NCBI RefSeq assembly: GCF_964213995.1
Contig: NC_135824.1
Coordinates: 2,480,001 to 2,544,000, forward strand
DNA: 64,000 nt
Origin: Mustelus asterias
Lineage: Eukaryota
Direction of reading: 5' to 3'
This document shows, in pieces, positions 17,101 to 39,600 of this stretch (position 1 is the stretch's first letter; the number at the start of each line of letters is the position of its first letter). A model generated the notes under the pieces. It had not been told where the DNA came from and made no database searches. It was given only the letters and a program-made list of their open reading frames with translations. The position numbers and the translations under genes were made by a program.

Positions 17101-20100
17101 GGTTAGTTGGCCCTGAAGCATTGCACGGGTGATGGTGCTATAATTGGACCCCCCCAGCCACCATCCCCCGCCCTCTGTAGATTTGAAAATGATAGATTGG
17201 GGATGTGCAAATGGAGGGGGAGGGGTTTGAGGTAAAAATAACAAATTAGTCTTTTTAATCCTAATCCAGAGATCCTGTGGGGAAAGTACCCATCGGGTGA
17301 GGACAGGATTGGGCTTATATGTAACGCCCCATAGTCAAAGATCCTGCTAGTTGGTTATAAACTTACAGAAGGCAATTACCGAAAAAGTATGATAGTGATC
17401 AGTCTGATAAGGATAGGAGAATCCTACCATGGACAGGAGTTTGGGAACCAGGGGAAAGATTTTAAGCTTGTTGGCTAAAGAACCAGGCAATCTGGGACTC
17501 TCAGAATCACTGGTTACAGCACCGGTGGCCATTTGACCCATTGTTTGTGTGCTGGCCCTCTGAGAGCACAATTCACCCATTGCCATCCTCACCATAATCC
17601 TGCACATTTTTTTTCCAGATTTTGTAATAATCCCTCTTGAAAGCCTTGATTGAATCTGCCTCCACCACACTCTCAGTCAGTGCATTCCAGATCCTAACCA
17701 CTCAGTGAAAAGGTTTTTGACAATTACTTTAAATCTGTCCCCTCTCATTCTCGATCCTTCCGCCAATGGGAACAGTTTCTCCCTATCTACTCTGTGCGGA
17801 TCACTCATGATTTTGAACACCTCGATCGAATCTCCCCTCAACCTCCCCTTCTCCAAATTTGCCAATCTGTCTTGTAATCAAAGTTCTTCATCCCTGGAAA
17901 CCTTCTCAAAAAGACAGTGAAAGCTGATACAATTGTAACTCGTAAAAGAAAATTAGATTTCAACTTGAAAATTAAATTGGTTGTTGGACAATGGGACTAA
18001 TTGGACACTGGTTATTTCAAAGTGCCAACTCAGTCACAATGGGCCAAGTCACAGAATTGTTGCATAAGAACTAGGAGCAGGAGTAGGCCATTCAACCCCT
18101 CGAGCCTGCTCCTCCATTCAATATGATTATGGCTGATCTCATCGCGACCTCATCTCCACCATCCTGCCCACTGCCCAAATCCCTTCATCCCGCTACTAAT
18201 TACAAACCTATCTATCTATCTATCTCAAATTTGTTTAGTGTTCCGGCATCCACTGCACTCTGGGGTAGAAAATTCCACAGATTCAGCACCCTTTAACTGT
18301 AGTGATACCTCCTCATTTCTGTTTTAAATCTGCCACCTCTTAGCCTAAAACTATGGCCTCTCGTTCTAGAATGTCCAACAAAGAGAAACATCCGCTCTGC
18401 GTCTACCATGTCAGTCCCCTTTAGCATCTTATATACCTCGATTAGATCTCCCCTCGTTCTTCTAAACTTCAGCGAGTATAGATCTAAACTGCTCAATTTC
18501 TTTTCACAAGACAAGTCCTTAATTCCTGGAATCGACCTAGTGAACCTTCTGTGAACCGCCTCTACTACATTTATATCCTTCCTCAAATAAGGAGACCAAA
18601 ACTGTGCGCAGTTCTCTGGATGCGGTCTCACCAATGGCCTATACAGTTGCAACAGCACTTCCCTACTTTTATACTTTATTCCATTAGCAATGAATGCCAA
18701 CATTTGCCTTCCTTATTACCTGCTGCATCTGCATACTATCTGCAATTCGTGCACAAGGACACCCAGATCCCTCTGTACTAAAGCATTTTGAAGTCCCTCT
18801 CCATTTTAGATAAGTTGCCTTTTTATTCCTCCGACCAAAATGAAAAACCTCACACTTATCTGCGTTAAATTTTGGTCCATTCACCAATGTATCCATAAAT
18901 TTGTAAATTTCTTATTTCCTCATTGCAAATTGCATTCCCACCTATTTTAGTGTCATCTGCAAATTTGGCTATCGCTGCATCCAGGTCATTAATATAGATT
19001 GTAAATCAATGGGGCCTGAGGACCGAAGCCTATGGCACCACACTACATCTTGCCAACCCGAAAAAGAACTTATCCCACTTTCTGTTGGTTAGACAATGCT
19101 TTATCGAAACTAATGTATTACCGCCAACCCCATGGGATCTCGCCTTGTGTATTAACCTTTTATGCAGCACCTTATCAAATACCTTCTGGAATTCCAGATA
19201 CATTACATCTACAGGACCCCCATTATCCACTTGAATCATTACATCTTCAAAGAACTCCAGCAAATTAGTCAAACATGATTTGCCCTTGAGAAAACCATGC
19301 TGACTCTGATGGATTGTGTTCTGACTTTCCAAATATCCAGTTACTACTTCCTTAATAATGGGTTCCAACAGTTTCCCAACAACAGACATTAAACTAACTG
19401 GTCCACAGTTTCCTACTTTCTCCTGTTTTGAACAGGGGCATTACTTTAGCCTTTTCCAATCCACTGGAACCTTTCCTGAATCAAGGGAATTTTGGAATAT
19501 TATAACCAATGCCTCCACTATCTCTGCTGACACTTCCTTTAAGATTTAGGCCAAAAGGAGGCCATTCAGCTCATCGTGTCTGCACCAGTTCTCCAAACGA
19601 GCATCATGGCTTAGTGCCATTCTCCTGTCTTTTCCCTGTATTCATGATGTGGAGATGCCGGCGTTGGACTGGGGTAAGCACAGTAAGAAGTCTCACAACA
19701 CCAGGTTAAAGTCCAACAGGTTTATTTGGTAGCAAATACCATAAGCTTTCGGAGCACAGCTCCTTCGTCAGATGGCTCCTTAAGTCAACTAATGTCTTGC
19801 CATCTGACGAAGGAGCTGTGCTCCGAAAGCTTATGGTATTTGCTACCAAATAAACCTGTTGGACTTTAACCTGGTGTTGTGAGACTTCTTACTGTCTTTT
19901 CCCTGTATCCCAGCACATTGTTTTTATTCAAGTAATCACCCAATATCCTCTTGAATGCCTCGATTGAACCTGCTTCCACTGCACTTCCAGGCAGTGCATT
20001 CCTGACCTGAACCACTTGCTGGGTGAAAAGGATTTCTCTCGCATCACATTTGCTTCTTTTGCAAATCACTTAAATCTGTGTCCTCTCGTTCTTGATCTTT

Positions 20101-36686: not shown

Positions 36687-39600
36687 GTAAGTGCCCAGGG
36701 AGCTGTTGATGCAACCCAAACTCCTGCTGTTGTTTAAGGAATGATGCCGGTGTTGGACTGGGGTGGGCACGGTAACAAGTCTCACACCAGGTTAAAGTCC
36801 AACAGGTTTAACTGGTAGCACGAGCCACAAACTTACGGAGCGCTGCCCGAATAGTGCTCCGAAAGCTTGTGGCTCGTGCTACCAAATAAACCTGTTGGAC
36901 TTTAAGTTGGTGTTGTGAGACTTCTTACTGTTGTTAAGAAAGCCCCACCACCAACACCTCTTACTATCTCAGAAGACTAAGGAAATTTGGCATGCTATGG
37001 CTCTCACCAACTTTTACAGATGCACCATAGAAAGCATTCTTTCTGGTTGTATCACAGCTTGGTACGGCTCCTGCTCTGCCCAAGACCACAAGGAACTACA
37101 TAGGGTCATGAATGAAGCCCAGCCCATCAAGCAAACCAGCCTCCCATCCATTGACTCTGTCTACACTTCCCGCTGCCTCGGCAAAGCAGCCAGCATAATT
37201 AAGGACCCCACGCACCCCGGATATTCTCTCTTCCACCTTCTTCCGTCAGAAAAAGGATACAAAAGTCTGAGGTCACGTACCAACCGACTCAAGAACAGCT
37301 TCTTCCCTGCTGCTGTCAGACTTTTGAATGGAACCAAAAGAGCTTTGACAAAGGGTCAATCTGGACTCGAAACGTCAGCTCTTTTCTCCTTACAGATGCT
37401 GCCAGACCTGCTGAGATTTTCCAGCATTTTCTCTTTTGGTTTCAGATTCCAGCATCCGCAGTAATTTGCTTTTATCCAGACTTTTAAATGGTCCTACCTT
37501 ATATTAAGTTGATCTTTCGCTACACCCTAGCCATGGCTGTAATACTACTATATTCTGCACCCTCTCCTTTCCTTCTCTATGCACAGTATACTTTGCCTCT
37601 ATAGCATGCAAGAAACAATACTTTTCACTGTATACTAATAATAAATCAAATTGAATCCTTCATTGAAAATTGGGGCGGCACGGTAGCACAGTGGTTAGCA
37701 CTGCTGCTTCACAGCTCCAGGGACCTGGGTTCGATTCCCGGCTTGGGGCACTGTCTGTGTGGAGTTTGCACATTCTCCTCGTGTCTGCGAGGGTTTGCTC
37801 CGGTTTCCTCCCACAGTCCAAAGATGTGTGGGTTAGGTTGATTGGCCAGGCTATAAATTGCCCCTTAGAGTCCTGAGATGCGTAGGTTAGAGGGATTAGT
37901 GAGTAAATATGTGGGGATATGGGGGTAGGGCCTGGGTGGGATTGTGATCGGTGCAGACTTGATGGGCCGAATGGCCTCCTTCTGCACTGTAGAGTTTCTA
38001 TGATTTCTATGATTGAGTGAAGCTGAGTTCTTGTCTCCTCAGCCCCTTCTCTGGGTAATGATTTGATTTATTACTGTCACAGGTATTGGTATACAGTGAA
38101 AAGTATTGTTTCTTGCGCACTATACAGACAAAGCATCCCATTTATAGAATATATGGGGCAAAAGAATAGGGTGCAGAATGTCCCGTTACAGCTATTGCTA
38201 GGGTGTAGAGAAAGATTCACTTAATATAAGGTAGGTCCATTGAAAAGTCTGATGGCAGCAGGGAAGAAGCTGTTTTTGAATCGGTTCGAACGTGACCCTC
38301 AGTTTTTTGTATCTTTTTCCTGATTAAGAATTGAGTGAAGCTGAGCTGTTATCTCCTCAGCTCCTCCTGTGGGTAATGGGAACAGAGGAGCAATGATCAT
38401 TGGGTTGAAGAATAGGCTGGGTAATCTATCTATTTGTCTGTCTCTCACTGTCAGTGATATTGCTTTGTAGAGAAACACCCACAGAAACAAAAACAGAAAA
38501 TGCTAGAAAATCTCAGCAGGTCTGACAGCATCTGTACAGAGAGAACAGGGTCAACATGAGGATGACCATCAGATTCCAGCATCCACAGTATTTTGCCTTT
38601 AACATGCATAGAAACAGAAAATGGGAGCAGGAGGAAGCCATTCGGCCCTTCAGATTTGCTCTGCCATTTAATTTTGATCATGGCTGATCATCCAACTCAA
38701 TAGCCTAATCTCGCCTTTCCCCTATATCCTCTGATCCCCTTCCCCCAAGTGCTATATCTAACTGCCTCGTGGAAACATTCAGTGTTTTGACCTCAACTGC
38801 TTTCTGTGGTAGCAAATTCCATAGGCTGACCACCCTCTGGGTGAAGAAATTTCTCCTCATCTCTGTCCTAAACAATCTACCCTGTATCATCAGACTGTGA
38901 TCCCTAGTTCTGGACATCCCCACCATCGGGAATATTCTTCTTGTGTCTACCCTGCCTAGTCCTCTTAGAATTTTATAGGTTTCTATGAGCTGTTTGAAGT
39001 GAGGGATGAAGAACATTACTTCATGCAGCATCATTCTATCCTAATTTTAGCTTTTGATTTTCCACTCCCCCACCCCCACTCTAGTTCCTTACTTCCATAG
39101 AACCAAGGAATTCCTACAGTACAGAAGGAGGCCATTCAGCCCAACAAGTCCGCACAAGTCCCACCATCCTCATATGCCTGTGTATTTACCATGGCTAATC
39201 CACCTAACCTGCACATCATTGGACATTGGGGCCCAATTTAGCATGGCCAATCCACCTAACCAGCACGTCTTTTGGACTGTGGGAGGAAACTTGAGTACCC
39301 AGAGGAAAGCCAAGCAGACACGAAGAGAACGTGCAAACTCCACACAGACGCGAAGAGAACGTGCAGACTCCACACAGACACATTTCTTTTTCCAAATGCT
39401 AATTGGCCTTCCATATACTTCCAGCATTTCATTTCACTCTTAATTTTCCAGTTTATTTTTATTTATAAAGTAAAGTTAATTTATCAGTCACAAGTAAGGC
39501 TTACATTAACACTGCAATGAAGTTACTGTGAAATTTCTCTAGTTGCCACACTTCGGCGCCTTTTCGGGTCAGTGCACCAAACCAGCATGTCTTTCAGACT

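Follow-up and report, generated by a model that had tools for sequence, protein, structure and literature searches.

Repeat copies at the locus

The window, by which we mean the whole 64,000-nt stretch of Mustelus asterias DNA analysed here, carries sequence of the genes MAP2K1, RPL4 and ZWILCH and contains dispersed copies of two repeat families, A and B, which are listed below by position in the window.

11689..11889, strand not assigned: two old family B-type arms, head to head, within a MAP2K1 intron; CUGACGA at 11807, GAAA gone
13924..14049, strand not assigned: core-less family B pair with a 14-bp target-site duplication (TSD)
19642..19776, minus strand: family A arm with a tail of about 35 nt, located in the last MAP2K1 intron and antisense to the gene; minimal hammerhead intact (19771-19743)
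19799..19896, plus strand: tailless family A partner of the preceding arm; hammerhead intact (19804-19832)
21221..21622, plus strand: young family A copy with the last ORF codons (21223-21279), a hammerhead (21492-21522) and the tail
23811..23897, plus strand: family A fragment truncated within stem II, without CUGANGA and without tail; weak TSD
33351..33397, minus strand: core-less family A fragment with a 14-bp TSD, in an RPL4 intron
36743..36931, 36743-36844 minus and 36852-36931 plus: core-less family A head-to-head pair; weak TSD
37332..37476, plus strand: family B copy that starts at 37341, after a short inverted stub, and has a U3-A8 hammerhead (37345-37376) and the tail
38484..38601, strand not assigned: core-less family B-type pair
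56285..56614, minus strand: decayed remnant of the GIY-YIG region from an element related to family B, unattached to any hammerhead at the locus
57459..57585, minus strand: old degenerate family B-type copy with eroded core

The two arms of the 19642-19896 pair are 97% complementary across 105 nt, both have their first base 4 nt ahead of C3, and the pair lies within a TSD of 17 exact bp (19625-19641 and 19892-19908). The 21221 copy, which contains a TATA-like box (21457-21461) and a candidate GT-AG intron (21407-21478), is accompanied by a 7-bp TSD and by 31 nt of filler (21191-21221) copied from 21776-21806; it is about 99% identical to family A members, so it is very recent. The TSD of the family B copy at 37332 has 15 bp with one mismatch (37317-37331 and 37477-37491). 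A first-pass annotation of this DNA had described the inserts as bordered by TSDs, which holds at 19642, 21221, 33351 and 37332 and weakly at 23811 and 36743, whereas none was found at the old copies 11689 and 57459. The core-less family A pieces that it had reported were recovered at 23811-23899, 33351-33388 and 36743-36931. Its GIY-YIG remnants are likewise genuine: 21223-21279 corresponds to the C terminus encoded by the family A ORF, and 56332-56577 on the minus strand matches the family A endonuclease region (E 2e-4) and is on the DNA level 67-69% identical to the family B ORF. Its degenerate hammerheads at 11801 and 57547 are indeed degenerate, but the GAAA half of the core is gone from both. 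Two further family B pairs, at 13924-14049 and 38484-38601, were absent from its list.

Hammerhead motifs and their covariation

Scanning the 64-kb window for the arrangement stem I-CUGANGA-A-stem II-GAAA-NN-UH-stem I yielded three intact motifs, 19804-19832 and 21492-21522 on the plus strand and 19743-19771 on the minus strand. They correspond to the family A cores noticed earlier at 19799-19837(+), 21489-21525(+) and 19738-19776(-), and these are real, as 30 dinucleotide shuffles contained no zero-mismatch core (mean 0.0, maximum 0). When up to two core mismatches are allowed, the window count of 5 is at chance level (shuffle mean 3.8), and support for the family B motif therefore comes from genome-wide data and not from the window scan. 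The features of a minimal type I hammerhead, that is C3-G8 or U3-A8, GAAA, UH, stems I and II and a palindromic stem III region, were found in four window copies and in none of the remaining listed ones. An Rfam scan of the window returned no hammerhead family match up to E 10, but because stem III is missing this is no argument against the motif.

The copy at 37336 had been put forward as the best family B bearer of CTGANGA, but its sequence reads TTGACAA. The motif at 37345 belongs to a subfamily with a fixed U3-A8 core (2,034 exact 38-mers), whereas a sister subfamily keeps C3-G8 (3,904 matches), so that the two differ by a double change at the 3-8 pair. The 9-bp stem I of this copy is partly an accident of its short inverted stub; that of the source element has 4 bp.

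Among 90 arms of family A, the stem I pair 2.1-1.1 is C-G in 51, T-A in 30 and T-G in 4; it is Watson-Crick in 81 of them, a value reached in 0 of 10,000 permutations, although the arms counted represent only a few related subfamilies, and the way in which they were selected accounts for part of the core conservation. At position 17 the 90 arms have U, A or C and in no case G. Covariation across genomic copies, which the first-pass annotation had named as a check, is thus present in stem I among family A subfamilies and in the double change of family B. The minimal, dimer-type anatomy that it had proposed is supported by the motif layout together with the stem I covariation. Folding was uninformative or negative: monomer z-scores were 0.51 (21492 motif), -2.90, -2.44, -0.99 and -1.91, and no co-folding prediction produced the dimer fold.

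Two Penelope-like elements behind the copies

Both families join directly to RT and GIY-YIG frames in longer genomic copies, which bears out the Penelope origin suggested before. Family A amounts to 161,426 exact 33-mers and at least 80,053 intact cores in the 3.68-Gb genome; its copies are 98.8-99.5% identical, and judged by sequence the family is young. A full-length element, L101, has two direct repeats of 484 nt that are 100% identical, flank the ORF and each carry a hammerhead, as expected of pseudo-LTRs from a partial tandem arrangement. Its open frame of 893 codons contains an RT (PF00078, E 3e-10) followed by a C-x4-C-x2-C linker, and its end is of the GIY-YIG type. This end was assigned from its motif; it has no Pfam match in L101, but PF01541 is listed for several homologues. 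In family A the start codon is found where the tail ends, about 100 nt past the cut site, and relatives of L101 in three sharks are 84-94% identical.

Family B is older than family A. Its hammerhead lies downstream of decayed RT, linker and GIY-YIG sequence in 10 of 16 long copies, none of which holds an intact ORF, and no full-length copy was recovered. The families share the C-x4-C-x2-C linker, a form of the CX2-5CxxC linker of Neptune, and their putative assignment to the Neptune clade is by this motif, which Nematis and Naiad also share (PMC8557442; here and below, published work is cited from the accessible portions of the papers). A single ORF with RT and C-terminal GIY-YIG, pseudo-LTRs, 5' truncation, inverted 5' copies, a tail of 30-40 bp at one end, palindromic junctions and, in the Adineta Pen2a pLTR, a putative TATA box have been described for EN+ PLEs including Neptune (PMC8557442, PMC3846280). 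The single ORF is intact in L101 and present as decayed pieces in family B, and the truncations, inverted copies and one-sided tails recur in the shark copies.

We are therefore highly confident that the window repeats are truncated insertion products of two very abundant Neptune-type PLEs which arose by the mechanism proposed below, and that the hammerhead would be part of the pseudo-LTR. The earlier description of them as terminal PLE pieces was right.

A pile-up of family B starts at hammerhead stem I

Where do the copies begin? Most family B inserts are only about 100-140 nt long. In a tally of 66 family B loci (of 70 loci, 4 that were second arms or probably a duplicate were left out; the loci from pattern searches are those met first along contig C1 and no random sample), 14 of 32 single inserts start at 0..+5, where +1 denotes the first base of stem I, and the same is true of at least one arm in 26 of 34 pairs. 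None of the 32 single inserts starts at the cleavage site, and the idea that inverted arms end there was rejected, as family B starts pile up at +1 and not at +36. A TATA box lies 30 nt ahead of the first base of stem I. In the C3-G8 sister group 25 of 36 copies, L304 (a long copy) left out of the count, start at -2..+5, and in four long copies a TATA-like box precedes position 3 by 34-35 nt, the distance also seen in the U3-A8 group. The distance from TATA box to ribozyme is thus constant while the spacer sequence diverges. Likely, then, the pile-up marks the element's own transcription start, and the distribution of ends suggests that uncut RNA is what gets copied. Since a cap-derived extra G was read by eye in only 2-3 of about 11 inserts, the start-site reading is based on the TATA spacing and the pile-up of ends.

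The 5' pile-up could instead be a preferred stopping or joining point, at which the palindromic 4-mer anneals two cDNAs, or a splice acceptor; we regard this as unlikely. Many pairs are perfectly palindromic across the 4-mer, but inserts without a partner also stop there, a second occurrence of this 4-mer at +36..39 attracts no pile-up (0 of 32 at +34..38), and the TATA spacing stays constant over a diverging spacer. The family B motif is also directly preceded by a pyrimidine run that ends in AG, and in Drosophila Penelope an intron ends at stem I (PMC4209133); however, the AG is usually retained inside the copy, and a common upstream exon was not seen.

Contigs of sequencing runs, considered as contigs only and from runs whose RNA status is a guess, displayed no piles of beginnings or ends, and none of the 15 of 16 joints shown in them is a GT-AG joint at the candidate intron 21407-21478. 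In two runs from other organisms 19 and 26 contigs have unrelated sequence before family B +1, which fits inserts starting there and shows no transcript end.

In family A no sharp 5' hot spot was seen among 70 arms, whose extents were measured against long references: 13 end 3-20 nt before C3, 18 within or after the motif and 2 exactly at the cut. A TATA box is present in 7 of 13 long family A copies.

Head-to-head pairs, tails and recurring junctions

The 3' ends of the copies are bimodal, with sites about 35 nt apart that define arms with and without a tail. Exactly one tailed and one tailless arm were found in 27 of 34 family B and 21 of 29 family A pairs, and none of the 63 pairs of both families carries two tails. 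An origin of the inverted arms by fold-back of variable length was dropped, as arms end at two fixed 3' sites. Divergence between arms is 3.0% within as against 9.6% between pairs in family A (18 pairs) and 7.2% as against 7.9% in family B (25 pairs); by this measure the arms of a pair are from the same subfamily, and divergence does not decide between one template and two.

The same 18-nt junction spacer occurs at three loci (L128, L129 and L237) and one family A junction is common to two (L195 and L196), each locus having its own TSD and the tail being on either arm. Because these two head-to-head junctions recur at separate target sites, some ORF-less composites have probably been re-copied. 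Independent formation of every junction does not account for identical ones in which the tail may be on one arm or the other.

The first-pass annotation had called the inserts retrozyme-like, and in its strong form, in which the short ORF-less units are non-autonomous elements transcribed and re-copied in trans, we consider this reading improbable. The shared junctions with their distinct TSDs, the prevailing shortness of family B inserts and a preprint that derives animal retrozymes from pLTRs and finds them in its one chondrichthyan (10.64898/2026.07.22.740005) speak for it. Then again, the recurring junctions were found in only 5 of 326 sequences searched and nowhere in the window, short family B copies have no upstream TATA box, and the lengths of copies grade continuously up to full-length protein-coding elements. 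Shark copies resemble animal non-LTR retrozymes in their type I hammerhead, pLTR ancestry and non-coding short copies (10.64898/2026.07.22.740005, PMC7229834), but retrozymes are head-to-tail repeats with a hammerhead in each unit (10.64898/2026.07.22.740005), whereas in the window protein-coding elements have left scattered copies, either single and 5'-truncated or paired head to head, and no head-to-tail tandem hammerhead units. What stands of the retrozyme description is the recurrence of two junctions elsewhere in the genome.

Proposed replication cycle

We suggest that the hammerhead serves the element's own RNA and not a host gene. The 5' pseudo-LTR of a full-length element would hold the promoter, and in family B the transcript would have the first base of stem I as its 5' end, 30 nt downstream of the TATA box. 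The RT/endonuclease protein would then cut the target and prime at one of the two sites about 35 nt apart, giving rise to copies with or without tail, and uncleaved RNA would be copied to its 5' end unless copying stops earlier. Extension of both cut ends would let the products join head to head, one arm tailed and the other tailless. Self-cleavage is expected to need two motifs that pair via their palindromes, as in a pLTR-ORF-pLTR transcript, and is probably assisted by the element's protein; the copies scattered in introns would be passengers whose activity is low or nil.

Two parts of this scheme go together, and we favour them jointly by somewhat more than an even chance: that the family B TATA box sets the transcript start at the first base of the hammerhead, placing the ribozyme at the extreme 5' end of the RNA, and that this start, the one-tail rule and the re-use of junctions amount to a genomic map of the replication cycle of a vertebrate Penelope element.

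Comparison with known systems

Hammerheads in the pseudo-LTRs of PLEs have been described before, and the minimal motifs act as dimers with low activity (PMC4209133). Like the min-HHR of Cervera and De la Pena (2014), which are known from the fish elements Xena, Poseidon and Neptune, the shark motifs have an extra base after A9, a G-C pair at the base of stem II, a stem II of 5-6 bp, a short stem I and a palindromic 15.1-16.1 region, and occur mostly as single dispersed copies (PMC4209133). U3-A8 is found there in Schistosoma Cercyon, whereas the shark case concerns a vertebrate, in which U3-A8 and C3-G8 exist side by side in sister subfamilies. Against the intact cores of shark family A, about 4,000 were reported for coelacanth and 9,000 for Xenopus, a comparison between different descriptors; no shark hammerhead is named in the text and supplementary file searched (PMC4209133). 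The accessible Neptune-clade texts (PMC8557442, PMC3846280) contain no mention that we found of a fixed TATA-to-ribozyme spacing or a pile-up of starts at stem I, and searchable papers yielded no description of these two shark families.

Another close counterpart is the Anolis Poseidon element PAc (Frangieh et al. 2024; PMC11167929), which has two RT start sites that define the tail, extends both target strands, has a protein-assisted ribozyme and uses uncut RNA as substrate, RNA ends at the cleavage site being absent. By our reading the shark elements agree with it in the start sites, the extension of both strands and the uncut template, but belong to another clade, and the ORF of PAc starts inside the hammerhead whereas that of family A starts at the end of the tail. 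The role of PLE hammerheads has been called open (PMC8557442), and cleavage is dispensable in vitro (PMC11167929). The shark genome supplies very many insertion ends, the intact young L101 and sister ribozymes that differ at the 3-8 pair, so that the start of the RNA, the copying of cut RNA and the origin of inverted arms are directly testable with it. If true, our scheme would provide a map of the replication cycle in a vertebrate with intact young autonomous copies and a natural C3-G8/U3-A8 ribozyme pair.

Copies in host genes

Several inserts lie in MAP2K1 and ZWILCH introns, as had been stated, but 33351 is in an RPL4 intron and 23811 lies beyond the MAP2K1 stop codon; the 36743..36931 pair follows what is taken to be the first exon of ZWILCH. 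Action on MAP2K1 and ZWILCH pre-mRNAs, which the first-pass annotation had implied, is unsupported, given that copy density is average for the genome, that the motifs need a partner and that one of two sense motifs is predicted to be locked in a 105-bp hairpin. That the intron copies are functional ribozymes altering the processing of these pre-mRNAs is very improbable: amniotes have domesticated intronic hammerheads (PMC6155905), the intact sense motifs 19804 and 21492 in the last MAP2K1 intron are palindrome-compatible and 1.7 kb apart and the U3-A8 motif of the 37332 copy is sense to ZWILCH, but the 19804 motif is predicted to be paired inside a -206.7 kcal/mol hairpin formed with the neighbouring arm, the 21492 motif alone has no hammerhead fold and sits in a very recent copy, and published minimal PLE motifs are without activity as monomers (PMC4209133). 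A host role of the window copies is thus unlikely, and they are likely inert in their host genes. Exact family A 33-mers number 4 in the window against 2.8 expected, with one per 23 kb genome-wide; copies in MAP2K1, RPL4 and ZWILCH are ordinary, and almost any long shark gene is expected to hold some.

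Results

The descriptor scan recovered three hammerheads with a perfect core in the window where 30 shuffles yielded none (mean 0.0, maximum 0), and thereby upholds the intact family A cores claimed in the first-pass annotation.

Perfect-core hammerheads in the window (descriptor scan)
19804-19832, + strand, perfect-core hammerhead
19743-19771, - strand, perfect-core hammerhead
21492-21522, + strand, perfect-core hammerhead

With two core mismatches allowed there were 5 matches versus 3.8 by chance, which is not above chance; those added include 37345-37376, the only intact family B motif in the window, whose core reads TTGACAA and not the CTGANGA that had been ascribed to the best family B copy. 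Core-less family A pieces and degenerate family B pieces lie where they had been placed, and target-site duplications (TSDs) are clear for the copies at 19642, 33351, 37332, 13924 and 21221 and weak or absent for the rest. The family A copy at 21221 is separated from its 7-bp TSD on the 5' side by 21191-21221, a 31-nt exact duplicate of 21776-21806: templated filler at the junction, with target DNA ~150 nt downstream as its source. An Rfam match to mir-5918 at 36800-36897 (43.9 bits, below the cut-off of 69) is the family A inverted pair there; pairs of this kind from Penelope-like elements (PLEs) can be mistaken for microRNA hairpins.

The 402-nt family A copy at 21221 is 98.8-99.5% identical to each of the 29 other loci fetched from the genome, and longer copies extend upstream into a single open frame. 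The complete element L101 has mutually identical direct repeats of 484 nt with a hammerhead in each, flanking an 893-codon frame that encodes a reverse transcriptase (RT; PF00078), then a C-x4-C-x2-C linker, and a C-terminus of GIY-YIG type; its start codon falls where the tail of the 5' repeat ends. The closest named relatives of its protein come from Mustelus (94%, covering 69% of the query), followed by Scyliorhinus (86%), Heptranchias (84%) and then turtles (42-45%). A 33-mer 3' of the motif has 161,426 exact matches in the genome, from which 2.8 are expected per 64 kb, and 4 are present in the window. Pattern search for the intact core with a shorter stem II gave 80,053 matches (control pattern, 1). 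Among 90 arms, which were picked by likeness to the core and have few subfamilies behind them, pair 2.1-1.1 is C-G in 51, T-A in 30, T-G in 4 and unpaired in 5; changes in stem II are mostly from G-C or A-U to G-U, core position 7 varies freely, and cleavage-site position 17 is U in 46, A in 28, C in 16 and G in none.

Some features of single copies may be added. A ~90-nt additional stretch in the pseudo-LTR (pLTR) of L101 (region 1797-1847), with a duplicated ORF end, sets this element in a subfamily apart from the 21221 copy; no contig from four sequencing runs covered it. At the 5' junction of the young copy L075 (103-1231), a 73-nt segment from inside the family A ORF is repeated perfectly ~15 times in tandem, probably by recurrent template slippage. 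Finally, 21407-21478 in the pLTR is a 72-nt GT-AG candidate intron, which ends 13 nt before C3, encloses a TATA-like box and resembles the 75-bp intron of Drosophila Penelope in size and place; the sequencing-run contigs examined, whose RNA nature is a guess, contained no spliced joint there.

In family B, TTGACAA (U3-A8) is the characteristic state, found in 27 of the 30 top copies, none of which has C3-G8. Its 38-mer has 2,034 exact genome matches, and 2,604 when positions 7 and 8 are left free; among the matches listed, 99 of 100 have A8 and none G8. A C3-G8 sister group with almost the same stem II (3,904 matches in a pattern search; control, 2) is 78-88% identical to family B across the downstream part, and the difference is a compensatory change in the tertiary 3-8 pair, such as PMC4209133 describes for Schistosoma. 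Decayed RT, linker and GIY-YIG sequence is joined to the motif in 10 of 16 long copies, none of which has an intact ORF. With 67-69% identity, the remnant at 56285-56614 is assigned to the B lineage; no pLTR sequence is common to families A and B.

Discussion

By the features tested, both families classify as EN+ PLEs with a minimal hammerhead, and the linker, as the only character used, would place them in the Neptune clade. They had been called retrozyme-like, a label that mostly does not hold: retrozymes are defined by tandem units, and the window copies are not so arranged. What is established directly is the anatomy of the elements, their copy numbers, the covariation and the distribution of ends; the papers searched contained no description of these shark families.

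Where do the copies begin? Loci were anchored 3' of the motif, leaving 5' ends free, and sampled as the first matches along one contig, C1. The 66 family B insertions comprise 32 singles and 34 head-to-head pairs. Counted from the first base of stem I (+1), 14 of the 32 singles start at 0 to +5, which is 14 of the 21 starting within 0 to +49 (p 6.5e-9 versus an even spread), and none at +34 to +38, around the expected first base of a cut product (+36). Of the 34 pairs, 26 have one arm or both starting at 0 to +5. A TATA box is present upstream, its first T 30 nt from +1. For the C3-G8 group the core itself was the sampling anchor; here 25 of 36 start at -2 to +5, and four long copies with diverged spacers have a TATA-like box 34-35 nt before position 3. 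We infer from these ends and boxes that transcription would start at stem I. Family A ends are less sharp: of 70 arms, 27 continue upstream for 163 nt or more, 13 stop 3-20 nt short of C3, 18 stop from +5 on and 2 exactly at the cut. Among 13 long copies, 7 carry a TATA box, placed 33-35 nt upstream of C3.

The 3' ends are bimodal, ~35 nt apart. One arm with this extension (tail) and one without make up 27 of 34 family B and 21 of 29 family A pairs, most others combine a tail with a short arm, and none of the 63 has two tails. This agrees with the one-sided tail described in PMC8557442 and PMC3846280 and with in vitro results on the Anolis element, whose RT starts at two sites and extends both target strands (PMC11167929). 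The head-to-head junction might be formed anew at every insertion; against this, an 18-nt junction spacer is common to three family B loci (L128, L129 and L237; C1:7.68, 7.84 and 10.99 Mb) and another junction to two family A loci (L195 and L196; C1:0.461 and 0.463 Mb), together 5 of 326 sequences searched, at separate target sites with their own TSDs, the tail being now on one arm, now on the other. Probably, therefore, a head-to-head (palindromic) source was copied more than once and the tail was fixed at insertion.

According to PMC4209133, minimal hammerheads of PLEs do not cleave as monomers and cleave only weakly as dimers; the Anolis motif depends on the element's protein and is dispensable for insertion (PMC11167929). 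We infer that the motif, as a dimer, would process pLTR-ORF-pLTR RNA, while integration would use uncut RNA. The window motifs are unlikely to play a part in host RNA: for the sense motif at 19804, folding predicts a hairpin (-206.7 kcal/mol) with the mirror arm of its own insert; that at 19743 is antisense; that at 21492 has no free partner and in folding prediction forms no hammerhead alone; and family B has no other intact motif than that at 37345.

As to the host genes, MAP2K1 (+ strand) has an exon near 16925 and its last at ~22420, which puts copies 19642 and 21221 in its last intron and copy 23811 beyond the stop codon. The predicted first ZWILCH exon, 36635-36687, is placed by an ATG and splice donor downstream of a CpG-rich stretch and would make copies 36743 and 37332 intronic; the exon at 56880 is confirmed. 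In human, SNAPC5 is located between MAP2K1 and RPL4; the corresponding stretch here would be 22600-28700. RPL4 (- strand) holds family A fragment 33351 in an intron, and its introns contain two SNORD16 and five SNORD18 genes (29005-33787, - strand); two of the SNORD18 genes, those at 29005 and 30411, share 97% identity across 67 nt.
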